This document shows positions 3,812-39,235 of a stretch of 64,000 nucleotides of DNA, piece after piece. The number at the start of each line of letters is the position of its first letter. Positions within the stretch are counted from its first letter, which is position 1. The position numbers and the translations under genes are program-made. The notes below the pieces were generated by a model. The model was given only the letters and a program-made list of their open reading frames with translations. It did no database searches and was not told the origin of the DNA. The stretch spans positions 1-64,000 of the forward strand of contig MHLM01000006.1 in NCBI GenBank assembly GCA_001821395.1, read 5' to 3'. Origin of the DNA: Candidatus Lloydbacteria bacterium RIFCSPHIGHO2_02_FULL_50_18 (GTDB lineage: Bacteria; Patescibacteriota; Minisyncoccia; Phycocordibacterales; UBA6899).

Positions 3812-5131
3812 ATGCGGTCACACGATCGCATTATTCACTCATCTTTACCCTCTATGGCAAAGACGCAACTCACTTGGCAGACGGAGAAACGCAAGGTCGA
3901 TGACCTCGTTCCCCACGCCAAGAACCCTCGCACCCTCTCTCCAAAGCAGAAGGAGGAAATCGAAGCGAGCATTACCAAGTTTAACCTCGTCGAGATCCCC
4001 GCGATCAACACCGACAATCTCGTCCTCGCCGGACACGTTCGCCTGAAGACCATGCAGGCACTCGGGCGCGGGCAGGAACTGATCGACGTGCGCGTCCCAA
4101 ATCGCACGCTCACTGCAAAGGAGTGCGAAGAGTACCTTCTCCGTTCCAATAAGAACACCGGCTCATGGGATTATGAGCTACTCAGAGCATTCGATACCGA
4201 GTTTTTGCTCGACATCGGATTCGACGATACCGACCTTTCGAATATTTGGGACGATGTACTCTCACTCGAAGACGACGACTTCAATGAGACGAAAGAGCTC
4301 GAGAAAGCCAAGAAAACCACCATCAAGGTCGGTGACTGCTTTCAGCTCGGTGATCACTCCCTCATATGCGGTGACAGCACCGACGAAGCGGTCGTGAAAG
4401 ACTTGGTCGGAGGCTTCCGCATCGACACCATCTATTCGGATAGCCCGTACAACATCGACCTGAACTATGACAAGGGCGTAGGCAACAAGCAGTCATACGG
4501 TGGAGATGTCGACGACAACAAGTCTGATGCGGAGTTCAGGGCATTCACCGTGAAGACCCTTGCGAACGGACTCTCGGTCATCAAGAAGGACGCACATGTC
4601 TTCTGGTGGTGCGACCAGCGTTATGTCGGGATGATCCAATCGGTGTATCAGGAGGTTGGGATCAAGTACAAGCGCACCTGCTTGTGGATCAAGAACGGAT
4701 TTTCGCCGACACCCAAGGTCGCCTTCAACAAGTGCTACGAGCCTTGTATCTATGGCACTATCGGCAAGCCCTATCTCTCCGACAAACAGCGCAAACTCCA
4801 CGAGATACTCAACACCGATGTTGGCACGGGAAACGCCACGGTAGATGACATCAGTGACATGATCGACATATGGCTTGCAAAGCGTGTGAGTAGCGACGAG
4901 TACGAGCACCCCACCCAGAAGCCACTCACGCTCCACGAACGCCCACTCCTGCGCTGCACGAAGATTGGCGATAATGTCCTCGACCTCTTCGGGGGAAGTG
5001 GTTCGACGCTTCTCGCTTGTGAACAACTGGGGCGCAAGGCCTTCCTCGTCGAACTGAGCCCCATCTTTTGTCAGCTCATCATCAACCGCTATGAAAAATT
5101 CACCGGAGACAAAGCAATCAAGCTCAATTAA
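3812..5131 (+). CDS. ParB-like nuclease domain fused to a beta-class DNA (N4-C/N6-A) methyltransferase
   Basis: N-terminal ParB-like motif region; motif IV DSPYN then motif I DLFGGSGST (order IV then I is beta class). Confidence 0.8.
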   Translation: MRSHDRIIHSSLPSMAKTQLTWQTEKRKVDDLVPHAKNPRTLSPKQKEEIEASITKFNLVEIPAINTDNLVLAGHVRLKTMQALGRGQELIDVRVPNRTLTAKECEEYLLRSNKNTGSWDYELLRAFDTEFLLDIGFDDTDLSNIWDDVLSLEDDDFNETKELEKAKKTTIKVGDCFQLGDHSLICGDSTDEAVVKDLVGGFRIDTIYSDSPYNIDLNYDKGVGNKQSYGGDVDDNKSDAEFRAFTVKTLANGLSVIKKDAHVFWWCDQRYVGMIQSVYQEVGIKYKRTCLWIKNGFSPTPKVAFNKCYEPCIYGTIGKPYLSDKQRKLHEILNTDVGTGNATVDDISDMIDIWLAKRVSSDEYEHPTQKPLTLHERPLLRCTKIGDNVLDLFGGSGSTLLACEQLGRKAFLVELSPIFCQLIINRYEKFTGDKAIKLN

Positions 5132-5888
5132 GACGGGAGATGTGATCGCGCTCGGTGATCACATCCTGATCTGTGGAGATGCGACAAAGGTTGACCTCGC
5201 GAGCATTGTGAAAGGCAGAGTCCACCTTGTCCTCACCGACCCGCCGTATGCGATCGACTACGTGGCGAGCAAGCGCAACATCGTCGGCGTGTCGAAGGAC
5301 AAGGATATTGCGAACGATGGCTTCATGAGTGATGCAGAGTATGTGACATTCACGAAGGGGTGGCTCACGCCAGTACTCCCCCTCCTTGAGAAGAAGAACA
5401 GCATCTACGTCTTCAACTCGGACAAGATGATCTTCGCTCTGAGGCAGGCATTCGTGGAGCTCAGGCTCAAGGTGGCACAGCTCATCATTTGGGTGAAGGA
5501 TCGCGCCATCGTCGGGAGACTCGACTACCTCCCACAACATGAGCTCATCCTCTATGGATGGCACGGGACCCACGACTTCAAGCGCGGGAAGGACAAGTCA
5601 GTCATGTTCGTGCCGAAGCCATCACGCAGTACGCTTCACCCCACCATGAAGCCGATCCCTCTCCTCCGCAAACTCATCTTGAACAGTACCGATGTGGGTG
5701 ACGTGGTCTATGACCCGTTCGGAGGGAGCGGATCGACGCTCATCGCCTGCGAACACACGAAGCGCAGATGCGTCATGGTGGAGATGGATCCCGAGTACTG
5801 CGCAACGATCGTTCGTCGCTACGAGCAGTTGATTAACCGCGAAGACAATGGCAAGCAAGCACCCCACAGTACTGGAAAAGCGAATTGA
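5091..5888 (+). CDS. Beta-class DNA methyltransferase (DPPY)
   Basis: LTDPPYAIDY (motif IV) then DPFGGSGSTLIA (motif I); overlaps the upstream MTase by 41 nt. Confidence 0.8.
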   Translation: MKNSPETKQSSSIKTGDVIALGDHILICGDATKVDLASIVKGRVHLVLTDPPYAIDYVASKRNIVGVSKDKDIANDGFMSDAEYVTFTKGWLTPVLPLLEKKNSIYVFNSDKMIFALRQAFVELRLKVAQLIIWVKDRAIVGRLDYLPQHELILYGWHGTHDFKRGKDKSVMFVPKPSRSTLHPTMKPIPLLRKLILNSTDVGDVVYDPFGGSGSTLIACEHTKRRCVMVEMDPEYCATIVRRYEQLINREDNGKQAPHSTGKAN

Positions 5889-7014: not shown

Positions 7015-7581
7015 CTACTCTTTATCGGTTGTTCCATCCTGATAGATGATCGTACCAGGAAGCCAGACGTACTTGAGATTTTCAAGATCGGTGTTGTTCA
7101 ACTTGATATCGCTATCAATGAACTGGTTGTATTTGATGCTTGCAACCCACGCTTTGTCGGTGTGTGCAGCAATGGGAGTATCGTCGTATGCAATGCTCAC
7201 GCGTTTGATCTCGTTCTTGAAGATGTCGTAGAAGATGATCATTCCCTCTACGCCGCGAACATCTTTTGCGGTTTTGTTGGAGAACTTAAAGCCAAGGGTG
7301 ATGTAACTTTGAAATTGACCATCCTCGGCATTTGCGGGGTCAAACTTTTTCGAGGTGACCGTGAGGTCAACCTTTTCACGAAGTTTGTTCGGGGTGGCGA
7401 TATCCGCAACGGGAGCTTTCTCCTCGATGGTGGTTTTTCCATCCATCATGCCCGTGATTCCTTTTAATCCTTCAGATAATGCATTGCGTATTTGATACGC
7501 TTTGTACTCCATACCGGAGAAAAATCCTATGATAAAAATAAGTGCCGCAAGAGCGGTCTTTACGATGTGCTGCTTGTTCAT
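7015..7581 (-). CDS. Membrane-anchored or secreted hypothetical protein
   Basis: 188 aa with an N-terminal hydrophobic helix; structured leader upstream. Confidence 0.5.
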   Translation of the reverse strand: MNKQHIVKTALAALIFIIGFFSGMEYKAYQIRNALSEGLKGITGMMDGKTTIEEKAPVADIATPNKLREKVDLTVTSKKFDPANAEDGQFQSYITLGFKFSNKTAKDVRGVEGMIIFYDIFKNEIKRVSIAYDDTPIAAHTDKAWVASIKYNQFIDSDIKLNNTDLENLKYVWLPGTIIYQDGTTDKE

Positions 7582-7740
7582 AATTTGCTCTAGCGGGGTT
7601 TAAAGCGGGGAGGTAAGCAAAAGGCTCCCAGCCATTGCGATGGTGCCTTTCGGCGACCACCCGTATCCCTTTCGAGACACGACCCGCTAGAGCGACTCTG
7701 ACTGGGAGTCTTTTATTCTCTAGCGGGGATTTTCGACCAT
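7582..7740 (-). promoter_or_regulatory. Structured leader or small RNA with three copies of the CTCTAGCGGG motif able to form alternative pairings, plus nested hairpins
   Basis: CCCCGCUAGAG (from 7718-7728) and CUCUAGCGGG (from 7683-7692) form a 10-bp stem; a third copy (7588-7598) lies 9 nt before the AUG of 7015..7581; GAAA and CGCA tetraloop hairpins between them. Confidence 0.4.
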
Positions 7741-7809
7741 ATCCTAAAGCGTGAGCCGTAGGGGTTAGGTCTCCTATTAAGTTGTACTTGGTATTGTACG
7801 GCATATAAA

Positions 7810-7847
7810 GAAACCGCTCAACCTTAGCTTAGATCAAGCGGTTTGCG
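7810..7847 (-). terminator. Hairpin downstream of the RM operon (AAACCGCT..AGCGGTTT), a possible terminator
   Basis: 8-bp stem with an 18-nt loop; followed on the minus strand by a weak CTTTATAT tract. Confidence 0.3.
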
Positions 7848-7868: not shown

Positions 7869-9023
7869 TTAATCAACCAGTTGGTAAAAACAGTTAGTTA
7901 ATTGGCGAATTAATTCTGGATAAATAGCGTCAAACGAGGAACCTTCTGGAATACCCAGCCGCTGACATACTGATACTAAGGCTTCAAATTTTTTCTCGTC
8001 ACTTACGGCATGGAGAAGATTTACCCGAAGATCGTACAGAACAAATAATGGGGAAACTATTTTGTGGACGTCCTTTTTAGGAAACTTCAGGCTAAACAGT
8101 AGTTCAATCCTCTTTAGTCCACCCAAATTTTTGGGGTCACCACCCAGCTTAATTATGATTGCCCCAAGATTGCTGACATCCAAAGATTCAATATTTATCT
8201 TATTCAAAAGATCCACGATATCCTTTTGCTCCTTTTCCGTATGAAGGACCGGTGGATTAAGTTTGGAGATGGATTGAATGGTCTCGTTTGTTAAATGACT
8301 CACCTCAAGTCCAAACTCTTTTGTACAAAACTCTAGGAATACAGACCGAGCATTAATTAACTTATCTTCAGGTGTATAGTCAGTAAATTTAACTTCAATC
8401 TGGCCATCATAGAACTCACTTCCAATGTCGTGGTCAGACTCAATATTTTCTGAACGCAGATAGTATTGCTCAGACTCATCTAGCGTGGCCATGTCACCAA
8501 GCCACATTATTACTTTTCCAGACTTGTTTACACCAAAAGATATATCGAAATCCTTTCCGCTGTAAATACTCCCATAGGTTTTTGAAGCAAATCGCACTCT
8601 ATAATCGGAATGGTTCTGGAATTTGAGCAGCACAGATTTTTTAAAAAATACAGGAGTTAAAAACCCAGAATTGTGATCTCTTTGCAGTCCAGGTATATAA
8701 TAGTAATCATCCGCATCATAAATAAATTTAACTTTTGTAAATCCAAGGTCCTCAACTATCTTCCTTCGATTACTGAAAATAGTATCCCGGTGTTCCTCAA
8801 GCGCCTTTTGGTGTAAATGAATGATCACAAATCTACTGTGATCAGGAAAATATTTTAAATCACATGATCCACAAAATAGATACGGTAGGGCTTGAATTGA
8901 TATATTTATTCCTGACACCAGTTCGTTGAAATCGAAATATTTCAAAACCATCGACTGTCCGCAATTTTCACAATATATACGCTGAACTTTTCCATCTTCG
9001 GGAAAGATATCCTTTATATCCAT
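7869..9023 (-). CDS. Uncharacterised zinc-ribbon protein that is the last gene of the type I RM operon
   Basis: 384 aa; N-terminal CENCG..CGSCD; 3-bp gap after the hsdR stop; no Walker motif, so not PrrC-like. Confidence 0.55.
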   Translation of the reverse strand: MDIKDIFPEDGKVQRIYCENCGQSMVLKYFDFNELVSGINISIQALPYLFCGSCDLKYFPDHSRFVIIHLHQKALEEHRDTIFSNRRKIVEDLGFTKVKFIYDADDYYYIPGLQRDHNSGFLTPVFFKKSVLLKFQNHSDYRVRFASKTYGSIYSGKDFDISFGVNKSGKVIMWLGDMATLDESEQYYLRSENIESDHDIGSEFYDGQIEVKFTDYTPEDKLINARSVFLEFCTKEFGLEVSHLTNETIQSISKLNPPVLHTEKEQKDIVDLLNKINIESLDVSNLGAIIIKLGGDPKNLGGLKRIELLFSLKFPKKDVHKIVSPLFVLYDLRVNLLHAVSDEKKFEALVSVCQRLGIPEGSSFDAIYPELIRQLTNCFYQLVD

Positions 9024-9026
9024 AGA

Positions 9027-11996
9027 CTAGTAATACTGCCTTATGTACTCATATGCTTTATCAAACAAAATATTATCTTTATGTAAGGCGTATTTATAGA
9101 GCGTCTTGCGAAGTGCCTGCTTGATCTCTCTCTCACCTGCTGCGGTACTCTGCCAACCCGGGAATCGTACAACTTTAACGATTCCATCTATGTCATTCAC
9201 TATGCGTTCTACTATTACAGGAGTTTGGTCAGTTTTGAGTTCAAGAAAAAGTTCGGAAAGAGCGGTCTTGGCACCATCTCTGCGTGTTTCTGTCTCAACT
9301 TCTTTTTCAGCCTGGACAGTTTCCTTCGCCAATTGAATAAGGTCTTTCAAAAACTCAATACTGTTAATTAGGCCCCGCTCAGCCTTATCCCTTAATTCCT
9401 CCAAGCGTTGACCAAGTGCGACAAAACGGGGGTCACCTTTGTGGCGAAGAAATCTCTTTGTAATCTCGATTTCAATTAGCTTAATTTTTTTCTTGTCAGT
9501 AGTGTGCATCAAATCCTCGATAACCTCTGCATCCAGAACTATTTCTTCGAGATGATCGTCAACTCCTTGGACGTGAATGTGTTCATGAATGAGTTTCATC
9601 GTCTGAGCACCAAGTGCATGCCAGAGAAGCCGACCTGTTTCTCCAGAGGGAGGGCGCACGGATTCATACACCTGCGATAACCATGTGTATTCATTCTGAA
9701 ATTTATTCAATATCGGATCTGGAGACAATGCTTCCCATATTTTACTTAAAACCGAGTAGTCCGCAGCATAGGCATCTCGTTTCTCGTCGGTATTTAAACA
9801 ATCCTGAGCTAGCAAAAGGCCTTCATAGCCCACCACAGATCGGTCGATGCCATGAAAATGACCGAGGCAAGTATTAACTGCTCCCTGAAGCTCATTTTTT
9901 AACTCGTTGAGATTTGTGATTACATACCGAACACTGGCATCGTCAAACTCGAGAGCTTTTGCAACATCATCGAATACGCCAAAATAATCCACGACTAATC
10001 CGTATGCCTTATCTTTATATACACGATTAGTGCGGCAAATGGCCTGTAGAAGGTTGTGATCTTTTAGCGCCTTGTCGAGATACATACACTGGAGAATCGG
10101 CGCATCAAACCCTGTAAGTAATTTAGCAGTAACGATCAAAAACTTAAGAGGATGCTCAGGATCCCGGAAGTTGTCGAGAAGTTTTTCCTGGTCTTCCTTG
10201 CTCATCTCATACTTCTGCTTAAGCATGGTGTCTGTTTCGCCCTTGCCGCCCGTTGAGATGACCACCGCACTTGCTTCCGGAGGTAAAATCTTATCAAGTT
10301 CTTGCTTATAGAGGTCACAGGCGTATCTGTCAGGAGTTACGATTTGGGCCTTAAAGCCCTGCGAATCAATTTTTTCTTGAAAATGTTTTACAACATCTTT
10401 AACGATTGTCTCAATGCGAGCAGGAGATTTAAGAAAAGCAGACATCTTTGCCGCTTCCTTTACCAAGCTCGTTCGATCGTCTTCTGAAAGATGTTCTGTC
10501 ATCTGGTCGAATTCAGCATCAATCAAGTCTCTGTCAACGTGAACATTCAATAGGCGCGGTTCGAAGTGCAGAGGGAGTGTTGCCTTGTCGCGAATTGAAT
10601 CCTGAAAAGTATATCGGGTCATGTAACCCTGATCATCTTCTTCGGCACCAAATGCCCAGAACGTGTTTCTTTCTGTTTTGTTGATAGGGGTACCAGTCAG
10701 ACCAAATAGGAATGCGTTCGGCAGGGCATCGCGCATTTTACGACCAAGATCACCCTCTTGTGTGCGATGAGCCTCATCTACCAAGACAATGATGTTTTCT
10801 CGTTCATTAAGCACGCCTCCAGCCTCAGCAAATTTAAAAATGGTAGTTATAATAATCTTTCTCGTATCCTTGTTTAAGAGATCGTGGAGTTCTGATCGTT
10901 TATCTGTTGACACAACATTTGGTATCTCTGTTGCGTTGAAAGTTCCTGTAATTTGAGTATCCAAATCGACTCGATCAACCACAACGAGAACGGTGGGGCT
11001 TTTTAATTCTTGAGATCGACGGAGCTTCTGCGCTGCAAATACCATCAATAGTGACTTACCAGATCCTTGAAAATGCCAAATGAGTCCCTTCTTCGGCCTA
11101 CCCGCCTTTACGCGCTCAATGATCAGGTTTGCGCCCTCCATCTGTTGGTAGCGGGCTATTATTTTTATCCGCTGCTTTCGCTTGTCTGTCGCAAAGAGCG
11201 TGAAGTTTTGAAGCAAGTCCAAAACAACTCCTGGATCAAGTGCTCCGGAAATCGCTTGTTTAATTTCAGAAAGACCCGCAATGGCACCTTTTGAGTCACG
11301 CCAAGGCCCCCACAACTCGAGCGGCATACGAATTGAGCCGTAACGGAATGTTTTACCCTCGGTTGCAAACGAAAACACATTTGGAACAAATAGTTGCGGG
11401 ATTGTATTTTCGTAATCGTCGTGAATATCGATCGCGCCGTCGAGCCAAGAAATAGAGGGGCGCACGGGTGTCTTAAATTCTCCCACGACGAGCGGAATTC
11501 CATTAACCAACATCACCAAATCGGGACGTTTCTCAGCCTTGCCTTGAACGGTGTACTGATTTGTGACAATGTATGTATTTTTCCCCAAGCTATCGAAATC
11601 AATAAAACTGATCGAAACGTGCTCATTATTTTCGCCAAACGGCATTGTCTTGTCACCACGGAGCCACGCAGAAAATTCTTCGTTCGCTCTAACGAGACCG
11701 GATGTTCCGACCGAGAGAAAGATCGCTCGTATTTTATATAAAACTTCGTCGGCTTTATTGGGGTCAGCTGCAATATCCGGATTAAGACGAATCAGAGCGT
11801 CTTTTAATAGCGACTCAACGATTGCATCTTTGGCTTCGCGCTTGAGTTGAGAGGAGGGAACGTATTGCCACTTCAAACCAGGGTGAAAAGCACTATCTGG
11901 GGCAAGATAGTTTGAATCCTGCATAAGCTCCGGGCTTATGCCGGTAAGTTCGTTCAAGATAAAGTGTTCGGTTGTATTTATTTCGTTAAATTTCAT
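9027..11996 (-). CDS. hsdR: Type I restriction enzyme R subunit
   Basis: 989 aa; SF2 helicase motif I FQGSGKS and DEAH box VLVDEAHRTQ; position after hsdS. Confidence 0.9.
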   Translation of the reverse strand: MKFNEINTTEHFILNELTGISPELMQDSNYLAPDSAFHPGLKWQYVPSSQLKREAKDAIVESLLKDALIRLNPDIAADPNKADEVLYKIRAIFLSVGTSGLVRANEEFSAWLRGDKTMPFGENNEHVSISFIDFDSLGKNTYIVTNQYTVQGKAEKRPDLVMLVNGIPLVVGEFKTPVRPSISWLDGAIDIHDDYENTIPQLFVPNVFSFATEGKTFRYGSIRMPLELWGPWRDSKGAIAGLSEIKQAISGALDPGVVLDLLQNFTLFATDKRKQRIKIIARYQQMEGANLIIERVKAGRPKKGLIWHFQGSGKSLLMVFAAQKLRRSQELKSPTVLVVVDRVDLDTQITGTFNATEIPNVVSTDKRSELHDLLNKDTRKIIITTIFKFAEAGGVLNERENIIVLVDEAHRTQEGDLGRKMRDALPNAFLFGLTGTPINKTERNTFWAFGAEEDDQGYMTRYTFQDSIRDKATLPLHFEPRLLNVHVDRDLIDAEFDQMTEHLSEDDRTSLVKEAAKMSAFLKSPARIETIVKDVVKHFQEKIDSQGFKAQIVTPDRYACDLYKQELDKILPPEASAVVISTGGKGETDTMLKQKYEMSKEDQEKLLDNFRDPEHPLKFLIVTAKLLTGFDAPILQCMYLDKALKDHNLLQAICRTNRVYKDKAYGLVVDYFGVFDDVAKALEFDDASVRYVITNLNELKNELQGAVNTCLGHFHGIDRSVVGYEGLLLAQDCLNTDEKRDAYAADYSVLSKIWEALSPDPILNKFQNEYTWLSQVYESVRPPSGETGRLLWHALGAQTMKLIHEHIHVQGVDDHLEEIVLDAEVIEDLMHTTDKKKIKLIEIEITKRFLRHKGDPRFVALGQRLEELRDKAERGLINSIEFLKDLIQLAKETVQAEKEVETETRRDGAKTALSELFLELKTDQTPVIVERIVNDIDGIVKVVRFPGWQSTAAGEREIKQALRKTLYKYALHKDNILFDKAYEYIRQYY

Positions 11997-13138
11997 GTAA
12001 TTACTTGAGTGAGGATTGCGTTTCGCATCGCCCTCGTTAGTTCGATAGAATTTTGCAACTGCTTCTTGATCTCCGTAAGTTGAGCAAGGTTCCTGAGAAT
12101 ATCTTTTTGCTTCTCGAGAGTAGGAACATAGATTTTATACTCGGAAACAATCTTATGAGATATGCGAGGCATCTTTGTCCCAAACCCCAGGGAAACAGCA
12201 TAGTGAATGAAACCATCAGAGTGTAGGTGGTGGAGAACGTATTCAATGTCTATATCAGGCGTTGCATCATACACAAGCAATTCCGTTGTACAGACTCCAT
12301 CAAATGATGGAATAACAGCCTTATCCAAATTGGGGCGTAGCTTGCTATAGAGCAATTGCCCGCTTTTGAAGACGTTGCAAGAGGACTGTGATTGTTGAGC
12401 GTCGCCATAAGCATCTACATTAAACGACCCTGGTTCAATATGCTCCAAACCTAAGTATTTCTCAAGTTTGTGTGGCGGAGCACTCTTCATCTTTGAAAGT
12501 TTTAAACATTCGCCTAGTTTTTTCCTGTCTAGTTTATTCTTAGTGAGTTCAGCAAAAATTGTCTTGAGTGTCAAATTTATTTTGTCCGCCGCGATTCTGT
12601 ATTTCTCTTCCAATTGATCTGACGCTATCAAAAGACCCAGTATTTTCTTCTGTACCTGACGGGGTGGCAGAAGAAATTTCTGTTGCGCAAGAATTTTCCA
12701 TTTAATGGTCGGTGAAAGTGAGCCTTCAGAGATATCTATCGCCCGATTCATAAATGCGTCAGAATGCATAAAGAATGGAAGAAAATCTGGTTCAATATGG
12801 GATGAATCTGCGCGGACGACCATCGCATGTGCGGAGCAAATTCCATCAAACTCTGCTATGGAGGCTTTTCTCTGGTATGCACGCCGTTTCCCAAAGATTA
12901 TGTCCCCTTTATATACACGAAGCTTGACGCCTTTTACATCAGACGGCACGCCGAATCGACGGATGTGAATAGAGTCGGAATCTAGATGTTCAAGACCAAC
13001 ATAAATATCGGCATCGGAACTGTTCGGGTCAACCCTTTCAGAGATATTCTTCGCTATATCACCAAACTTAGCCAACTCCCAATCGGAGCGGTTATGTTTA
13101 ACGAAAATATTTTCAGCTTGTTTATTAAGAGTTTTCAT
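11993..13138 (-). CDS. hsdS: Type I RM specificity subunit
   Basis: 381 aa with two TRD-like halves and conserved central/C-terminal repeats; operon position. Confidence 0.8.
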   Translation of the reverse strand: MKTLNKQAENIFVKHNRSDWELAKFGDIAKNISERVDPNSSDADIYVGLEHLDSDSIHIRRFGVPSDVKGVKLRVYKGDIIFGKRRAYQRKASIAEFDGICSAHAMVVRADSSHIEPDFLPFFMHSDAFMNRAIDISEGSLSPTIKWKILAQQKFLLPPRQVQKKILGLLIASDQLEEKYRIAADKINLTLKTIFAELTKNKLDRKKLGECLKLSKMKSAPPHKLEKYLGLEHIEPGSFNVDAYGDAQQSQSSCNVFKSGQLLYSKLRPNLDKAVIPSFDGVCTTELLVYDATPDIDIEYVLHHLHSDGFIHYAVSLGFGTKMPRISHKIVSEYKIYVPTLEKQKDILRNLAQLTEIKKQLQNSIELTRAMRNAILTQVIT

Positions 13139-14612
13139 ATGTTTTTTTGTCTAACATCTCTAAGAGAGATCGGGATCCCCTTTTTAGGTCAGAACTATTC
13201 TGAGACCATTCCTCTACTACCACTCGGAGTCCTTTTTCTTTAATACCATTCCCTTGAGTAGATATGTAGAGCGGAATATTAAGATTTGCGTTATTGTTGA
13301 GGATATTTTGATTGTCGATCACTTTCGTAAAATTTGGTATATCAATAAATTCCTTAAATGCTGCATGAATTCTTTCAACATGTGGATCTTCAAGAAAAGA
13401 AAAAGCATTCTGCCGCGTTACTTCTTTAACAGCATTTATAAAAAGTACTCTACCTTTTCGTTCTTTAGGTTTGTCCCAACGGCAAACCAACAAGCAGGCC
13501 TCCATGGGTGAGTTGTAAAATAGATTTGGGCCCAAACCGATGACTGCTTCGATTACGTCATCCTTTAGCATTTTTTCTCTGAACTCCCGCTCAGAATCAC
13601 GAAAGAGAACCCCGTGAGGCCAAAGGACAATGCTCCGGCCGTTTTTCTTGTCTAGGCTTTTGAGAATATGCTGCTCAAAAGCATAGTCTGCACATCCTTG
13701 TGGAGGGGTGCCGTAAATGTTTCTCCCGTAAGGATCATTCGTCCACGCATCTCGATTCCACCTCTTAACTGAATACGGCGGGTTCGCAAGGATGACGTCG
13801 AAGGTTTTAAGTTTGTCGTCCTCCAAAAACTTTGGGCTAGACAATGTGTCTCCACGCTCAATATGAAAGTCCTCGATTCCATGAAGAAACATGTTCATTC
13901 GCGCGATGGAGGATGTCATCAGATTCAACTCTTGCCCATAGAGCTTAAGCGTTCGGTATTCTTTACTCTGGTCCTTAAGTTGGTTTACGCAGTTCAGTAA
14001 TAACCCACCAGAACCACAAGTTGGATCGTATACGCTCTCACCTGGCTGGGGGTTCATTATCAAGCTCATTAAACGAACGACCGTACGATTGGTGTAGAAC
14101 TCAGCAGCTGTATGCCCACTATCATCTGCAAACTTCTTGATAAGGAATTCATATGCATTACCAAGTTCGTCATTGGGAACATTGGCAATGCTTAGGTCTT
14201 GTTCAGAAAAATGTTCGAGTAGGTCTATTAGAATCTCGTCAGATAGACGACTCTTGTTTGTCCAAGAGGCGTCGCCAAAAATACCGAATAAACGATCCTC
14301 GTTCGTCTTTTCAATTTTGCGGAGCGCCTTCTGTAGGGCATCCCCCACATTAACCGTCACCTGTCGAACATCATTCCAGTGTGCCCCTTTGGGAATTTGG
14401 AATCTATGATTTTCATCAAATTTTGCATATTCTTTGTCGCCCCCCGATTCATTGAGTGCCCGCTCGTATTCTTCTTTGTAGACATCACAGATGCGCTTAT
14501 AAAATAATAAGGGGAAAATATATTGCTTGTAGTCTCCAGCATCAATGACACCACGAAGAAGTGTCGCCGCTCCCCAAAGATATCTTTCCAGTTCTTGTTT
14601 TTTAATAGCCAT
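13125..14612 (-). CDS. hsdM: Type I RM N6-adenine methyltransferase subunit (paralog 1)
   Basis: 495 aa; VYDPTCGSGGLLL (motif I) and ILANPPYS (motif IV). Confidence 0.9.
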   Translation of the reverse strand: MAIKKQELERYLWGAATLLRGVIDAGDYKQYIFPLLFYKRICDVYKEEYERALNESGGDKEYAKFDENHRFQIPKGAHWNDVRQVTVNVGDALQKALRKIEKTNEDRLFGIFGDASWTNKSRLSDEILIDLLEHFSEQDLSIANVPNDELGNAYEFLIKKFADDSGHTAAEFYTNRTVVRLMSLIMNPQPGESVYDPTCGSGGLLLNCVNQLKDQSKEYRTLKLYGQELNLMTSSIARMNMFLHGIEDFHIERGDTLSSPKFLEDDKLKTFDVILANPPYSVKRWNRDAWTNDPYGRNIYGTPPQGCADYAFEQHILKSLDKKNGRSIVLWPHGVLFRDSEREFREKMLKDDVIEAVIGLGPNLFYNSPMEACLLVCRWDKPKERKGRVLFINAVKEVTRQNAFSFLEDPHVERIHAAFKEFIDIPNFTKVIDNQNILNNNANLNIPLYISTQGNGIKEKGLRVVVEEWSQNSSDLKRGSRSLLEMLDKKTYENS

Positions 14613-14613
14613 A

Positions 14614-16101
14614 CTATTTTGATATCAGAGAAAACCCATCTAAGAGTCTTTTGAGTTCTGTCTCAGCCTCCCATACCTCCTCGAGAGAATTCTTCAACTC
14701 TTTCGTGGCCTCTTCTACTGACGGGAGTGTCTTACCTGAAATCTTTTCAATATAAAGAGAAATATTTAGGCTCCAATCATTTGCCGCAATGTCTTTGAGG
14801 GTTGCCACCACGGCGTGGTCTTTAACACCCTTGAACGCAGAGTACCAGTCGAAAATCTGATCAACATGCCTCTGCTCAAGATAATTTTGAGCACGATCCA
14901 CGCGCACCTGGTCTGATGCGTCTATAAACAAAACCTTACCTTCTTTGTTGTCAGGCTTATTAGCACGAAATACTAAAATGCATGCGGCAACTGTTGCTCC
15001 ATAGAAGATATTAGGCCCAAGTCCTATCACTGCTTCAAGCGCATCTGTCTCTATTATTTTCTTTCTTATTTGTCCTTCTCGACCCTTGCGAAATAGTGCG
15101 CCATGAGGAAGAACCACGGCTATGCGTCCGCGAGGATAAGACATGGATTTGATCATGTGTTGCACCCACGCGTAATCTCCATAACCAGCTGGTGGTACCC
15201 CTGCAAAATTTCTACCGTATGGGTCCTGAATCCAAAGGTCATCACCCCACTTCTTTAGGGAGAAGGGTGGATTAGCAATAACGCAATCAAAGGTCGAAAG
15301 TTGATCGCCTTCATAGTATGCGGGACTTCGTAATGTATCTCCACGCTGAATTTGGAAGTCCTGAACATCGTGGAGGAACATGTTCATGCGAGCAATGGAT
15401 GAAGTGGTGAGGTTTTTTTCCTGTCCAAATATTTTTAGAGTGCGGGCGTCCTTACCATGAGAGCGTAGGTGCTCAACACAATTGAGTAGCATGCCTCCCG
15501 TACCACAGGCTGGGTCATATACAGTCTCACCTTCTTTTGGATCAATTATACGGCCCATGAGCTGAACAACTGTTCTCGGTGTATAAAACTCCCCCGCTTT
15601 CTTGTTTGTTAAATCAGCAAACTTTTTTATGAGGTATTCGTATGCCTGACCGAGCATGTCGAGGTCGACCGTTCCGTTTGCCAGCTTGTATTCAGAAAAA
15701 TGTTCAATAAGTTCCACCAATAAGCTGTCGGGCAACTTCTCCTTGTTGGTCCATTGTGCATCTCCAAAGATCCCATACAGAAAATCAGGATTGGCTTTTT
15801 CAATTTCACGAAATGCATACTGAAGCTTTGCTCCAACATTCTTTGTGGTGGCGCGCACATCTGCCCAATGACATCCATCAGGAATTATAAATCTATGGAA
15901 TTCTGGCAAAACTGCGTAACCCTCATCGCCCTTAGATTCTTCTAATAGCTTTTTATATTCATCATCATAAACATCTGAAAGTCGTTTAAAAAACAGGAGT
16001 GGAAAAACATATACCTTAAAATCAGCAGCATCAACTGGCCCCTTGAGTATCCATGCGGCTTGAGCGAGATGTTGTTCGAGTTGTGGGAGTGTCAATTTCA
16101 T
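14614..16101 (-). CDS. hsdM: Type I RM N6-adenine methyltransferase subunit (paralog 2, roughly 50% identical to paralog 1)
   Basis: 495 aa; VYDPACGTGGMLL and IANPPFS; collinear with paralog 1. Confidence 0.9.
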   Translation of the reverse strand: MKLTLPQLEQHLAQAAWILKGPVDAADFKVYVFPLLFFKRLSDVYDDEYKKLLEESKGDEGYAVLPEFHRFIIPDGCHWADVRATTKNVGAKLQYAFREIEKANPDFLYGIFGDAQWTNKEKLPDSLLVELIEHFSEYKLANGTVDLDMLGQAYEYLIKKFADLTNKKAGEFYTPRTVVQLMGRIIDPKEGETVYDPACGTGGMLLNCVEHLRSHGKDARTLKIFGQEKNLTTSSIARMNMFLHDVQDFQIQRGDTLRSPAYYEGDQLSTFDCVIANPPFSLKKWGDDLWIQDPYGRNFAGVPPAGYGDYAWVQHMIKSMSYPRGRIAVVLPHGALFRKGREGQIRKKIIETDALEAVIGLGPNIFYGATVAACILVFRANKPDNKEGKVLFIDASDQVRVDRAQNYLEQRHVDQIFDWYSAFKGVKDHAVVATLKDIAANDWSLNISLYIEKISGKTLPSVEEATKELKNSLEEVWEAETELKRLLDGFSLISK

Positions 16102-16331
16102 TTTGGTGACGATGTCAGCTTTTCAACGGTAGTCCCCAGAGCTGTGGCAATTTTTACCATCGTTGCCACTCGGGGATCAGGAGTGAGTCCGCTCTCAATC
16201 TTCGCAATGGTGTGATAATCAAGGCCGGTTTTCGTAACCAGCTTGCTCTTAGACAATCGCTTTTCATTTCTAATTTTTCTCAAGTTTCCTGCGATATTTG
16301 AGAATTTTTTTGGGTGAGATTTCTTTTTCAT
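16098..16331 (-). CDS. XRE-family HTH protein; candidate controller (C) protein of the RM operon
   Basis: 77 aa HTH_3-like (LSKSKLVTKTGLDYHTIAKIESG); 4-bp overlap with hsdM. Confidence 0.7.
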   Translation of the reverse strand: MKKKSHPKKFSNIAGNLRKIRNEKRLSKSKLVTKTGLDYHTIAKIESGLTPDPRVATMVKIATALGTTVEKLTSSPK

Positions 16332-16488
16332 ACGACAACCTTGCTTAGCATAATTATACCAAATTTATTGAGTTTTTGCTGCAATAAAAAGTGGATAAAA
16401 ATAGGGCTATTTGAGGGATGGTTACCAACAGCTTACCAACTGACCCTCCCTGGACTCCCTGGGAGGGTTGCGTCATCAATTGGTGTGT

Positions 16489-17844
16489 ATGAAAAATACA
16501 AACCCGCTAGAGGGCTCTGACGAGCCGAAAATTAAGTACTGTTTATACGCTAGAAAATCGAGCGAATCGGACGAGCAGCAAGCCCTTTCGATCGACTCCC
16601 AAGCCAAGGAGATGCTCCAGCTGGCGCAACGAGAGGGGCTTGATGTGGTCGACATCAAGCGCGAGTCGCACTCCGCAAAAAGCACCGGGCAACGCCCGGT
16701 CTTCAATGAGCTGATCAGCGACCTCAAGGAGGGCAAGTTTAATGCCATTCTCGCATGGCATCCGGATCGCTTAAGCAGAAATGCAGGCGACCTCGGTGCT
16801 ATCGTCGACCTGATGGACGAGCACCGACTTATCGAAGTGAGAACCTTTGGTCAAAAGTTTACAAATAGTCCAAGCGAGAAGTTTCTACTCATGATTCTAT
16901 GCTCGCAAGCAAAGCTTGAGAACGACAACAAGGGCGTGAACGTGAAGCGGGGGCTACGAGCAAAAGTTGAGATGGGACTATGGCCATGCGTTGCACCGAC
17001 CGGATACATCAACGACCGCATGCCTGGGCGTGCAGGATATGTGCTCGTCGACCCGGTGCGTGCTCCGATTATCAAGCAAATATTTGAAAAGGTCGGCAAT
17101 GACCGATGGAGCGCTAGGACGGTTTATAAATGGATGGTCAAAGAAGGAAAGTTCAATAGCGTGAGAAAAGGAAATAAGGCACTCACCCTGAGCACAATCT
17201 ATCGACTTCTGCATCAGCCTTTCTATTCGGGAACATTCGAGTACCCCACCGGGAGCGGTAACTGGTACAAAGGTCAACATGAGCCACTCGTTTCCAAGGA
17301 ACTCTTCGAGAAGGTGCAGCAAAAAATAGCGGAGGAGTTGAAGTCAAAGAAACAATATCAAGAATTCACCTTCACGAACCTTATGCTCTGCGGATACTGT
17401 GGGTCAGGTATTACCGCACAATCAAAAGACAAAAATCTCAAAGATGGGAGCGTCAAAAGTTACACCTACTACAACTGCACGCACAACAAGGATCACTTCT
17501 GCAAAAACCCGTTCATTCGCGAAGAAGAACTTCTCAAACAGATCGATGAGATCTTCGACAAGATCGATATCGACGAACTTGGAACACGGCATATCATTGA
17601 AAGAGAGGTTGCGCGATACAACAACATTCGGGCAAAACTCCTCGGCGCAAAAGAAAATGACAAAGCACTCGACGTCGACGTGCGAAACTATGCCAAGTAC
17701 ATGCTCAAAGAAGGCACGATGCTCGAAAAACGCGAACTCCTAGGGTGCCTAAAAAATAGAATTATTCTGAAGGATAAAACGATAACGCTTGAAAAAAGTT
17801 TGCAAATTAATGACTTAACGCCACAAACACAGATAGCACGCTGA
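16489..17844 (+). CDS. Large serine recombinase (resolvase domain, recombinase domain and zinc ribbon)
   Basis: YARKSSESDEQQALSIDSQ catalytic Ser region; C-terminal CGYCGS..YYNCTH; an alternative TTG start exists at 16468. Confidence 0.85.
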   Translation: MKNTNPLEGSDEPKIKYCLYARKSSESDEQQALSIDSQAKEMLQLAQREGLDVVDIKRESHSAKSTGQRPVFNELISDLKEGKFNAILAWHPDRLSRNAGDLGAIVDLMDEHRLIEVRTFGQKFTNSPSEKFLLMILCSQAKLENDNKGVNVKRGLRAKVEMGLWPCVAPTGYINDRMPGRAGYVLVDPVRAPIIKQIFEKVGNDRWSARTVYKWMVKEGKFNSVRKGNKALTLSTIYRLLHQPFYSGTFEYPTGSGNWYKGQHEPLVSKELFEKVQQKIAEELKSKKQYQEFTFTNLMLCGYCGSGITAQSKDKNLKDGSVKSYTYYNCTHNKDHFCKNPFIREEELLKQIDEIFDKIDIDELGTRHIIEREVARYNNIRAKLLGAKENDKALDVDVRNYAKYMLKEGTMLEKRELLGCLKNRIILKDKTITLEKSLQINDLTPQTQIAR

Positions 17845-18173: not shown

Positions 18174-19565
18174 CTATTTTAAGTTCTCATCAAAAACTTG
18201 ATAACTATCATCATTTGAGTCTCCTTTTCCGGTAAATTCTGAGAATGGGCAATTTGGCAAGCAGTCTTCACCGAGTTTTCTTTCCAGCTCCCCGGTAACA
18301 AAATGGTATAGATTTTCACCGTGATGACTTATGCCGTTGGGTTTTACTACAAGTGCCAACATCTGTAGCACCATCATTGAGGCGAGGTGCATGCTAAAAG
18401 CAAAAACGTTTTGATTGTTCAAGTGATGGCGCAAACCGTCAACGGTGTTTATGTACTCCGAATCATCCAGCAGACCTTTGCGTTCAAGAGACACTTCAGC
18501 AAAGGTGTACTGCCCAATGCACGAGAGACATTTATTACCCGGGGTTGCAGTGTGCGCACGCCAATCCGCTGAGCGCAACAAATCCTCCTTGGTGTGCACT
18601 CGAATACCACCATCAACGACTGGAATCAGGTGTGTATAAGCAATGTAATTAAGAACGTGGCGCGCCCACGGCCTATCAACGCAACTGAACAGGAGGTCAC
18701 AATTTAGTGCACCTCGGTATCCCTCAGCTCCAGTTACATGAACTGGTAATCGTGTGACGAAAAAGTTGTCGGCAGTTGCGTGTTCAATAAGTCTTTTTGC
18801 AATTACATCCGTCTTCAATTCACCAACATCTTTTATCGTCGCATGCATAAGTCGATCGAGGTTGTGTTTCTTTACTACGTCAAAATCGATAAGCGAAATA
18901 TGCTGAACTCCAGTTCTAGCAAGTGCCTCAGCAATAGCACTTCCGACACTTCCCGTGCCGACTATTCCTATGTGTAAACGAGATAATTCGTCTTGCTTAT
19001 CTTGACCCCATGAAGAAATTGTACGTTTCAGTTCTTCTCTAAAACCCTGCGGCTTAAGCAGCGCGTCACAATAGGTGATAGAAAGGCCCATTTGACCTAT
19101 AGTGCGAACACTCTCGCACCATGATGGAGCATATTCCCGAACCCCGGTTCTATTCCAAAAACGAGCACTCCACGCACCATCTGTGCCTATAGTTAGTCCA
19201 AGGAGGGGTCGTTCTGTTATTCCAAAGGTTGCCGCAGCGTGCGATAACTCCGCCCGAACATCGGTCCTGCTCATATTCTGCCATCCAGGAAACGGGTGGC
19301 TATGCATAAAAGCAAGGCCCATATCTCGGGCGGATGCTATTTGTAGTGCTCTCTGAAAATACTCGGGAGAAAAACTCGCGTTGCCATGCACTTCCCGCTC
19401 TCCGTCTTCAGGAAGAATCGGTTCAACCAAGAGTGCTGTCAGTCTTTCTCCTCCGCTGCTCGGCTGCCACAAAGCAAAACATAAGTCTTCCTGCCCATCC
19501 TTACGCACAAGATGAGAAAAGAGTTTCTGGTTTACCTCGGTTGTCATCGCTACGCTGTATCTCAT
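18174..19565 (-). CDS. JAB/MPN (JAMM) metalloprotease fused to an E1-like ThiF/MoeB adenylyltransferase
   Basis: N-terminal HSHPFPGWQNMSRTD (HxH..SxxD JAMM motif); then GIVGTGSVGS..IDFDVVKKHNLDRL E1 Rossmann motifs; C-terminal CxxC pairs. Confidence 0.8.
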   Translation of the reverse strand: MRYSVAMTTEVNQKLFSHLVRKDGQEDLCFALWQPSSGGERLTALLVEPILPEDGEREVHGNASFSPEYFQRALQIASARDMGLAFMHSHPFPGWQNMSRTDVRAELSHAAATFGITERPLLGLTIGTDGAWSARFWNRTGVREYAPSWCESVRTIGQMGLSITYCDALLKPQGFREELKRTISSWGQDKQDELSRLHIGIVGTGSVGSAIAEALARTGVQHISLIDFDVVKKHNLDRLMHATIKDVGELKTDVIAKRLIEHATADNFFVTRLPVHVTGAEGYRGALNCDLLFSCVDRPWARHVLNYIAYTHLIPVVDGGIRVHTKEDLLRSADWRAHTATPGNKCLSCIGQYTFAEVSLERKGLLDDSEYINTVDGLRHHLNNQNVFAFSMHLASMMVLQMLALVVKPNGISHHGENLYHFVTGELERKLGEDCLPNCPFSEFTGKGDSNDDSYQVFDENLK

Positions 19566-21302: not shown

Positions 21303-21359
21303 AAAAGCGACCCTTCTGGGTCGCCTCTTGGGTCTCTGCGTCGGGGGTGCCTATAGGGA
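21303..21359. repeat. Putative attR: the partner of the 57-bp direct repeat, overlapping the tRNA-His 3' end and its terminator hairpin
   Basis: See 290..346; the GCGACCC-TTCT-GGGTCGC hairpin serves as the tRNA terminator. Confidence 0.75.
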
Positions 21360-21418
21360 ATCGAACCCTAGCTAAAGGCTCCACAAGCCTCTGTGCTAAC
21401 CGCTACACCATAGGCACC
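21346..21418 (-). tRNA. tRNA-His (GTG) with an encoded G-1
   Basis: Acceptor GTGCCTA/TAGGCAC, anticodon loop TTGTGGA, T-loop GGTTCGATTCC, extra 5' G pairing with discriminator C. Confidence 0.85.
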
Positions 21419-38321: not shown

Positions 38322-38792
38322 CTACTCGTCATCAGAAAATTCTTCCTGCAGTTTTGGGAAATGTTTATCCAAATAACTCTGCAGGATGATGGCCGCAGCC
38401 GACGCATCATTTTGGGGATTATCCCCCTGCAAATGCATTGCTTCCCGGGAAGAAAGCACTTCGTTCATAAGAAAAATGGGGAGCGACGTCGTCGTCTTCA
38501 ACTGTCCCATGAACACGCCGATCTTTTTCATGATCGGATTCGGTAGATTCTGAAAATTCAACGACTCACCAATAACGATGGCATCAATGTGTTCCTTTTG
38601 ACAAATAGCAACAATATCCTCGATCAAGGAGTGAGTATTCAAGATGACGCACAAAGGAAAGGCCATCGTTCCCCCATCTGGGGCAACCGCAAGCCCAACG
38701 CGCTTTGTTCCAAAATCAATACCTAAATATTTCATCTCTACACAGTAGCGCACGTTCTCTGAGGGCACAACGTGATGAGTTTCGGTGAGCAA
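38322..38792 (-). CDS. ruvX: Holliday junction resolvase-like YqgF/RuvX
   Basis: KYLGIDFGTKRVGLAV N-terminal signature. Confidence 0.85.
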   Translation of the reverse strand: MLTETHHVVPSENVRYCVEMKYLGIDFGTKRVGLAVAPDGGTMAFPLCVILNTHSLIEDIVAICQKEHIDAIVIGESLNFQNLPNPIMKKIGVFMGQLKTTTSLPIFLMNEVLSSREAMHLQGDNPQNDASAAAIILQSYLDKHFPKLQEEFSDDE

Positions 38793-38855
38793 TCAAGCAA
38801 AGCGCTCTCCTTTGACTAATCAAAATGGCGCCACATGGCGCTCATTTTTAACGGG

Positions 38856-38942
38856 CGGAGGAGGTGAGATTCGAACTCACGGTCCACTTACATGGACGAC
38901 GGTTTTCAAGACCGTTGCCTTAAACCACTCAGCCACTCCTCC
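38856..38942 (-). tRNA. tRNA-Ser (TGA), type II
   Basis: Acceptor GGAGGAG/CTCCTCC, anticodon loop CTTGAAA, long variable arm, T-loop GAGTTCGAATCTC. Confidence 0.8.
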
Positions 38943-39235
38943 CTTATTGCACTCAGCCTCTCTTTCTAAATCGAACGAAACGCACAAATTCATTCGTGCT
39001 CATCACTATACTGAAAAATAGATAATTGGCAAAAGATCAATGTGGTATTGCTAATTCTTTTTTAATCGGAGCGCTTGACAAGCTGAACATATTGTGCTAA
39101 ACTTTCGCTAGTCTTCTTTGAAGAACCGTCTGTGGTCACCCCCGTGTCAATAAAAGCCTTATGGGCATCGGGGTGACCACAACAATACCGTTACCAGCCC
39201 ACGGCGGGTGTCAGCCGAAACTTTAGGAGATCTCC

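Follow-up and report, generated by a model that had tools for sequence, protein, structure and literature searches.

The PrrC nuclease, a member of the HEPN superfamily (PMC3710099), is almost exclusively embedded in restriction-modification (RM) loci (10.1101/2024.01.29.577857). ApeA, a ligand-gated anticodon nuclease that acts in abortive infection as a single HEPN protein (Gao 2020; bioRxiv 10.64898/2026.01.26.701840), is embedded in RM operons in some lineages (PMC3710099). HEC-08 (EC042_2821) combines a DUF3644 HEPN domain with zinc fingers, and mutation of its motif histidine abolishes defence (10.1101/2024.01.29.577857). The recurrence of genes at the 3' end of defence operons has been termed 'embedding' by Payne et al., who offer selfish co-transfer and functional back-up as possible explanations (10.1101/2024.01.29.577857). 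Here we describe a gene at such a position, ZR384 (the name used here), in the first 64,000 nucleotides of contig MHLM01000006.1 of Candidatus Lloydbacteria bacterium RIFCSPHIGHO2_02_FULL_50_18 (the window). The protein belongs to a large unnamed family, and with moderate confidence we propose from its modelled structure, conserved residues and gene neighbourhoods that it may be a one-gene, defence-island effector of abortive infection that carries a latent HEPN-type RNase.

ZR384 is encoded on the minus strand by an open reading frame (ORF; 7869..9023) of 384 amino acids with an ATG start. The stop codon of hsdR ends at 9027 and the ATG of ZR384 begins at 9023, leaving a gap of exactly 3 nt, as was already noted in an earlier examination of the window without database searches (the sequence-only reading). 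A scan of the junction found no minus-strand promoter-like site between the two genes, and a terminator-like hairpin with a 14-pair stem and a T-rich tail (inverted repeat I2; 7844..7811, minus strand) is located 25 nt past the ZR384 stop. Based on the short gap, the absence of a promoter-like site at the junction and the hairpin downstream, ZR384 is apparently co-transcribed as the last cistron of the hsd operon, the terminal gene of a type I RM cassette in which hsdM, hsdS and hsdR are all present in the same transcription unit. The absent promoter-like site and the hairpin thus support the co-transcription with hsdR that the sequence-only reading had assumed.

We identified 754 homologs of ZR384 at E ≤ 1e-3, approximately 50% identical and full length. 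In a representative library clustered at 50% identity, 1181 clusters match at the same threshold, 191 of them at E ≤ 1e-30. Given these numbers the ORF is a real gene, and the description of its product as uncharacterised holds for the entire family. All 754 homologs, which include proteins from Vibrio, Alteromonas, Shewanella, Delftia, Brevundimonas and Candidatus Nomurabacteria, are annotated either as 'hypothetical' or as 'YgiT-type zinc finger'. The family occurs mostly in Proteobacteria; its other members are found in metagenome-assembled genomes assigned to Bacillota (plus Sporomusa malonica), Cyanobacteriota/Melainabacteria, Bacteroidota, the candidate phyla radiation (Candidatus Nomurabacteria) and other phyla. 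Distant homologs are located on plasmids. A phage origin was considered and rejected, since no homolog was found in IMG/VR or among GenBank phages. ZR384 itself has no match in Pfam, NCBIfam or PADLOC, and PDB searches with the protein and with two family profiles (A1 and A6) returned nothing meaningful. Pfam searches with 30 members (E ≤ 5) and with 100 diverse representatives gave marginal zinc-ribbon matches at most. We found no description of the family in Pfam, NCBIfam, PADLOC v2 (including its PDC candidates) or the literature as searched.

The AlphaFold model of ZR384 (pLDDT 85.4) consists of three parts, a zinc ribbon, an alpha/beta domain and a HEPN-like helical domain; structure prediction had been suggested as a check on the sequence-only reading. 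The N-terminal part (residues 1–76; 8796..9023, minus strand) is a beta-rich C4 zinc ribbon followed by a helix, with an MqsA/YgiT-N-like fold. Its zinc ligands are C18, C21, C51 and C54, in CxxC motifs at residues 18–21 and 51–54 (codons within 8862..8972), so that the ribbon noted earlier from its paired CxxC motifs is borne out. The N-domain ribbon of MqsA is the sole structure recovered when the full model is compared with the PDB using Foldseek, with a probability of up to 0.93. No Walker A motif (GxxxxGK[ST]) is present in ZR384 and no NTPase family in Pfam, NCBIfam or PADLOC matches it, in agreement with the sequence-only reading; Pfam also identifies no helix-turn-helix (HTH) domain. 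The central alpha/beta domain (residues 77–217; 8373..8795, minus strand) is the most conserved block of the protein, and contains the motifs YDxDDY, PGLxR..GFLTPVFF, MWLGD and EQYYLRSENIxSDHxIGSEFYDGQI.

The C-terminal domain (residues 218–384; 7872..8372, minus strand) is all-helical and includes the conserved stretch PL(F/Y)xLYDLRxxxxH, which ends in R333-x4-H338 (8010..8027, minus strand; codons CGG at 8027..8025 and CAT at 8012..8010), a putative RNase catalytic pair. Both residues are invariant in alignment A1, and they are conserved in at least 97% of 133 sequences and in at least 90% of 100 representatives with identities down to 23%. The near-invariant polar residues in the same two sets are D106, N166, N193, S196 and H198 in the centre and E279, D331, R333 and H338 in the C-terminal domain. 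In the model the R333-x4-H338 pair is found at the end of helix 319–337 and the start of the next loop, which is the canonical position of the catalytic Rx4-6H in HEPN proteins (PMC3710099). A helical hairpin insert (residues 283–313) is situated ahead of helix 319–337, and E279 ends the preceding helix. The best structural neighbour of the domain is HepT (5YEP/7AE8). Judging from the model, this is probably a divergent HEPN-like domain with R333 and H338 as its putative catalytic pair. Because this domain carries an invariant Rx4H, ZR384 is plausibly a toxic effector.

The N-terminal ribbon is not universal in the family. Approximately ten representatives of roughly 290–300 amino acids have no zinc ribbon. 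In addition, a sister family of approximately 533 amino acids (746 matches) has in common with ZR384 the central and C-terminal core (ZR residues 119–384; hhalign probability 99.8%, E 1.5e-27), including the YDLRxxxxH motif, together with a different N-terminal region of about 270 amino acids. Members of the sister family are annotated as hypothetical and occur on rhizobial and other plasmids, for example at 4284..5885 of L168 (Rhizobium johnstonii pRL8) and in P0271–P0390; one is named 'ApeA N-terminal domain-containing protein' in UniRef, which is a database name only. The ribbon-less proteins and the different N-terminus of the sister family indicate that the central and helical domains form the core and that the N-terminal module is swappable, an arrangement that by analogy would fit sensor-effector defence proteins.

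Linkage to hsdR was surveyed in 64 loci (one genome per species), in 80 metagenome loci and in targeted contigs of the closest relatives. The species and metagenome sets constitute unbiased scans, in which a cluster was considered assessable if at least 1.5 kb of upstream sequence was available. In these scans hsdR is the immediate upstream neighbour in 3 of the 69 assessable clusters, and most homologs adjoin genes unrelated to RM. A survey of this kind is the refuting test that the sequence-only reading had named; its outcome does not support family-wide coupling, and obligate RM coupling is rejected by it. As most members have no RM neighbour, an RM complex is not needed to restrain the family. 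The linkage is recurrent but facultative, and hitch-hiking within defence islands fits the data better than obligate coupling does.

Among the relatives examined down to 56% ZR identity, hsdR is directly upstream in every case with the exceptions of P0010 (60%) and L001 (55%), which have no hsd genes. The entire order HTH-hsdM-hsdM-hsdS-hsdR-ZR is kept at 85, 73 and 69% ZR identity (L071–L073), and a partial contig at 63% identity shows hsdS-hsdR-ZR. The gap between hsdR and ZR is 1–8 nt in the clade of the window and 1–12 nt in relatives down to 56% identity. Between cassettes, HsdM and HsdR are 80–87% identical and HsdS 43–44%, and ZR diverges faster than HsdR. A Nomurabacteria cassette (L166, ZR 56% identical) has the order recombinase-HTH-hsdM-hsdS-hsdR-ZR, and its HsdR is of the EcoR124_C type and 27% identical to that of the window. 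At L014 (47% ZR identity) the order is GmrSD, an EcoEI-type HsdR with an N-terminal DUF4145, ZR and a TnsA-like gene; the nearest ZR relatives of this locus are not RM-linked. Thus three HsdR lineages, those of the window, L166 and L014, are found directly upstream of a ZR gene. Looser associations are seen at L116, where a helicase gene is located 13 nt upstream of ZR and hsdM downstream, and at L053, where the order is hsdR, AbiJ, a gene of unknown function and ZR.

The neighbourhoods of the homologs as a whole are rich in defence genes. Among 148 immediate neighbours in approximately 85 contexts, those with strong PADLOC matches (E ≤ 1e-10) comprise, among others, Upx, LmuB (Lamassu), GajB (Gabija), DndB, type I and type IIG RM and PDC candidates. 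Further immediate neighbours are AbiEii-like ATPases, HipA and ArdC, and mobile elements are represented by integrases, resolvases, relaxases and transposases. Upx, which as a single protein senses terminase (PMC13601566) and is matched in PADLOC with E-values as low as 3e-253, lies 9–21 nt upstream of ZR in L012, L061 and L139, in the tight 3'-end arrangement also seen behind hsdR, and is convergent with ZR in L032, L033 and L040. Proteins with a SEC-C motif directly adjoin ZR in eight independent clusters, in varying orientation and with at least three architectures (730–806 amino acids in L010, L023, L032, L033, L038, L040, L046, L048 and L051; 367–375 in L045, L086 and L157; and L044), and that of L046 carries a NERD nuclease-related domain. 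SEC-C adjacency is more common than linkage to hsdR, and Upx likewise recurs at least as often as hsdR. Hachiman is found downstream of ZR in L073. All-against-all clustering of the neighbours at 64 loci recovered lineage-specific synteny only and no conserved partner or antitoxin gene. The absence of such a partner across 167 loci indicates that ZR is a one-gene module, and the defence and mobile-element neighbours, together with the recurrent position 3' of hsdR and Upx, the lack of copies in phage or viral collections and the low local G+C, are among the grounds for proposing a role in defence.

Several observations weigh against a HEPN RNase. The residue following R333 is V, I or L, while in HEPN proteins it is usually a polar N, D or H (PMC3710099). 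There is no clear Ex3[KR] motif: E279 has no K or R at +4, and E263-x3-K/R267 is present but less conserved. No HEPN profile in Pfam or PADLOC matches any of approximately 130 family members, even at permissive E-values, and the Foldseek comparison retrieves the MqsA-like ribbon and not a HEPN fold. An hhalign comparison of the family profile with single AbiJ (L053) and DUF4145 (L014) sequences, which has low power, gave no signal. Finally, conservation peaks outside the helical domain, with a mean column conservation in 133 sequences of 0.74–0.83 in the central domain and 0.4–0.74 elsewhere, so that the chemistry could reside in the centre. The central domain would then be the active centre, a new enzyme or ligand-binding fold such as a metal-dependent nuclease or a nucleotide-modifying enzyme with candidate residues D103, D105, D106, D177, E185, E192, D197 and H198, and the helical domain would be a scaffold or serve in oligomerisation. 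The many invariant acidic and polar residues of this domain, its lack of a convincing structural match and the atypical HEPN motif with its hydrophobic residue after the arginine all favour such a centre. However, R333, H338, D331 and E279 are as well conserved as the central residues down to 23% identity and occupy the canonical HEPN position, and the structures weakly similar to the central domain (KA1, TBP-like and the RnlA NRD) are binding modules rather than catalytic folds. We consider a central active site unlikely.

Neighbourhood bears on a different set of explanations. The sequence-only reading had proposed ZR384 as a candidate RM-coupled effector, and in the manner of PrrC the protein would be a guarded toxin, bound and held inactive by the HsdR/HsdM/HsdS complex and released when a phage inactivates the enzyme with an anti-restriction protein. 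The proposal survives in part. The 3-nt gap, the lack of a promoter-like site of its own and the terminator after the gene are as expected, the hsdR-ZR junction is conserved in cassettes with 56%–100% ZR identity, three HsdR types that differ from one another, that of L014 among them, are followed by ZR at this position, and the probable nuclease fold is that of PrrC. Coupling is not family-wide, however, as hsdR is upstream in so few of the assessable clusters. The nearest non-RM relatives (P0010 and L001) exist without any hsd gene, and the identical 3'-end position is occupied behind Upx, which is an autonomous one-protein system. ZR384 has no ABC ATPase or other nucleotide-sensing module, and PrrC differs both in its place between hsdS and hsdR and in being almost entirely confined to RM loci. 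Guarding of this type is possible in the clade of the window but is not a property of the family, and as an explanation of ZR384 we find it improbable. A broader version, in which ZR proteins are universal plug-in backup effectors, appears to us quite improbable. Here the ribbon and the central domain, the latter a new sensor fold, would dock on or monitor an upstream nuclease-type defence protein (the three kinds of HsdR, Upx or the NERD/SEC-C proteins), and the HEPN RNase would be freed when the partner is inhibited or overwhelmed. Alternatively, ZR384 may have no role in defence and be a mobile-element accessory protein carried along by integrative elements and plasmids. It could then serve, for example, as a regulator, as a stability or addiction factor or as a zinc-ribbon nucleic-acid-binding protein. 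The frequent serine recombinases, integrases, relaxases, transposases and plasmid backbones nearby agree with this, as does a ribbon of the type found in the MqsA antitoxin. But ZR384 lacks a DNA-binding HTH, no toxin gene accompanies it, bona fide defence systems are enriched among the neighbours, and a pure regulator would hardly be expected to conserve an Rx4H within a HEPN-like fold; we give this alternative little credence.

We therefore favour a single-gene abortive-infection effector, for which we infer RNase activity, toxicity, a trigger and a role in defence as follows. ZR384 would be a latent, metal-independent endoribonuclease whose HEPN domains dimerise, bringing together a composite active site from R333 and H338. 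The zinc ribbon and the central domain may hold this site off or sense a cue of infection. Once triggered, the protein would cut host RNA, either tRNA anticodon loops or mRNA, and abort the phage infection in the manner of ApeA, DARNA and HEC-08. In the window and its clade, the gene has been captured as the last, apparently co-transcribed cistron of a mobile type I RM cassette that adjoins a serine recombinase, where it would act as a second line behind restriction. If this is correct, a large, widely distributed and unannotated family joins the single-protein HEPN abortive-infection nucleases with a new architecture, in which an MqsA-like zinc ribbon is followed by an unmatched central domain of extreme conservation and then by a divergent HEPN domain. 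The recurrence of its genes at the 3' end of unrelated defence operons (three HsdR types and Upx) would also provide a test case for whether appended genes are functionally coupled or merely co-transferred.

The remaining genes of the cassette are all on the minus strand. The hsdR gene (9027..11996, 989 amino acids) matches TIGR00348 (E 1.8e-160), PADLOC REase_I (E 7e-131) and Pfam HSDR_N, SWI2_SNF2 and T1R_D3-like domains, and hsdS (11993..13138, 381 amino acids) matches Pfam Methylase_S. Two tandem hsdM paralogs follow at 13125..14612 and 14614..16101, both with HsdM_N and N6_Mtase domains. Both are full-length, 1 nt apart and 51% identical to each other, and the pair is kept in L071–L073; the Nomurabacteria cassette has a single hsdM. 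Such a pair points to a heteromeric methylase, an uncommon arrangement for type I RM. The first gene of the cassette is an Xre-type HTH gene (16098..16331, 77 amino acids; Pfam HTH_3, E 1.3e-8), which has equivalents at the same position in L071–L073 and L166. Its place is analogous to that of the RptR repressor (PMC12255303), the likeness being one of position alone. A large serine recombinase gene with Resolvase, Recombinase and Zn_ribbon_recom domains (16468..17844, plus strand) flanks the cassette and is divergent from it in the window. Such a recombinase also adjoins the cassette in L072, L073 and L166, and in L076 one immediately precedes the ZR homolog; the hsd cassette may be mobilised by this recombinase. 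The lowest G+C of the window is found at 8001..10000 (0.40 versus approximately 0.48), and a tRNA-His gene is located at 21343..21418, which is consistent with a horizontally acquired island over roughly the first 21 kb.

Several further features of the window were recorded. An Rfam LOOT RNA (RF03000; 71.4 bits, E 6.5e-12) is found at 7642..7771 on the minus strand, between the ZR384 terminator and an ORF (7015..7581) for a 188-amino-acid protein with an N-terminal hydrophobic segment. In L071 and L077 the RNA likewise follows the ZR stop by approximately 100 nt, but in L073 it is 7 kb away, just 5' of a 180-amino-acid ORF, and in L001 it is 8 kb upstream. It was considered as part of the ZR384 system and rejected, as its position appears to follow the island backbone or a small downstream gene. 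Copies of CCCGCTAGAG and CTCTAGCGGG at 7587..7731 form nested inverted repeats and are largely stems of this RNA. A 463-amino-acid ThiF/E1-like protein is encoded at 18174..19565 (minus strand), with many PADLOC 'E1-E2' matches (best E 6.7e-19). In L065 a 121-amino-acid gene is the next after the ThiF/E1-like gene, which may be a candidate ubiquitin-like conjugation defence module. At 3812..5888 (plus strand), a gene for a ParB_N and N6_N4 methyltransferase protein (439 amino acids) overlaps that for a second N6_N4 methyltransferase (265 amino acids); a ParB-methyltransferase is present in the related island L073 as well. A permuted tmRNA called by ARAGORN at 38328..38948 (minus strand) overlaps tRNA-Ser (38854..38942) and is probably a false positive.

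The resemblance of ZR384 to known systems is partial in each case. Structural similarity to RnlA/LsoA (RNase LS) is too weak to claim homology, and the ZR384 locus has no RnlB-like antitoxin gene and the protein no HEPN_RnaseLS match. MqsA (YgiT) has an N-terminal C4 zinc ribbon of the same fold; however, its C-terminal Xre HTH and adjacent MqsR toxin have no counterpart in ZR384, and the MqsA-like ribbon is dispensable in some ZR family members. HEC-08 and ZR384 are each a single protein in which a HEPN or HEPN-like domain is joined to zinc-ribbon elements, and each is found embedded in other defence systems. The HEPN domain of HEC-08 is N-terminal and its zinc fingers are C-terminal, the reverse of ZR384; HEC-08 has no central alpha/beta domain, and ZR384 has no DUF3644 match in Pfam. 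Membership in the same family as HEC-08 or DARNA/PD-T7-3 was rejected, as the domain order differs and none of the models matches.

PrrC and RloC are HEPN-type nucleases with essential R and H residues, which R333 and H338 in the predicted HEPN-like domain of ZR384 may parallel. Both they and ZR384 show genetic linkage to type I RM, and a suicidal RNase acting as a second line would fit either. The N-terminal ABC/Rad50-like ATPase of PrrC and RloC is absent from ZR384, the gene follows hsdR rather than lying between hsdS and hsdR, and nothing like the near-exclusive type I RM embedding of PrrC is seen for the ZR family. The sequence-only reading had called the protein unlike PrrC; this is correct for the missing ABC ATPase, whereas the probable nuclease fold belongs to the superfamily of the PrrC nuclease (PMC3710099). 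ApeA is longer (approximately 580 amino acids) and mostly helical, while ZR384 has a zinc ribbon and a beta-rich middle domain in 384 amino acids, and the latter shows no match to ApeA_NTD1 or HEPN_Apea in Pfam or to ApeA in PADLOC. Both are nevertheless the product of one gene with a C-terminal diverged HEPN or HEPN-like domain that contains insertions and has HepT (5YEP/7AE8) as its best structural neighbour, preceded by N-terminal and middle domains that are not catalytic and could gate its activity.
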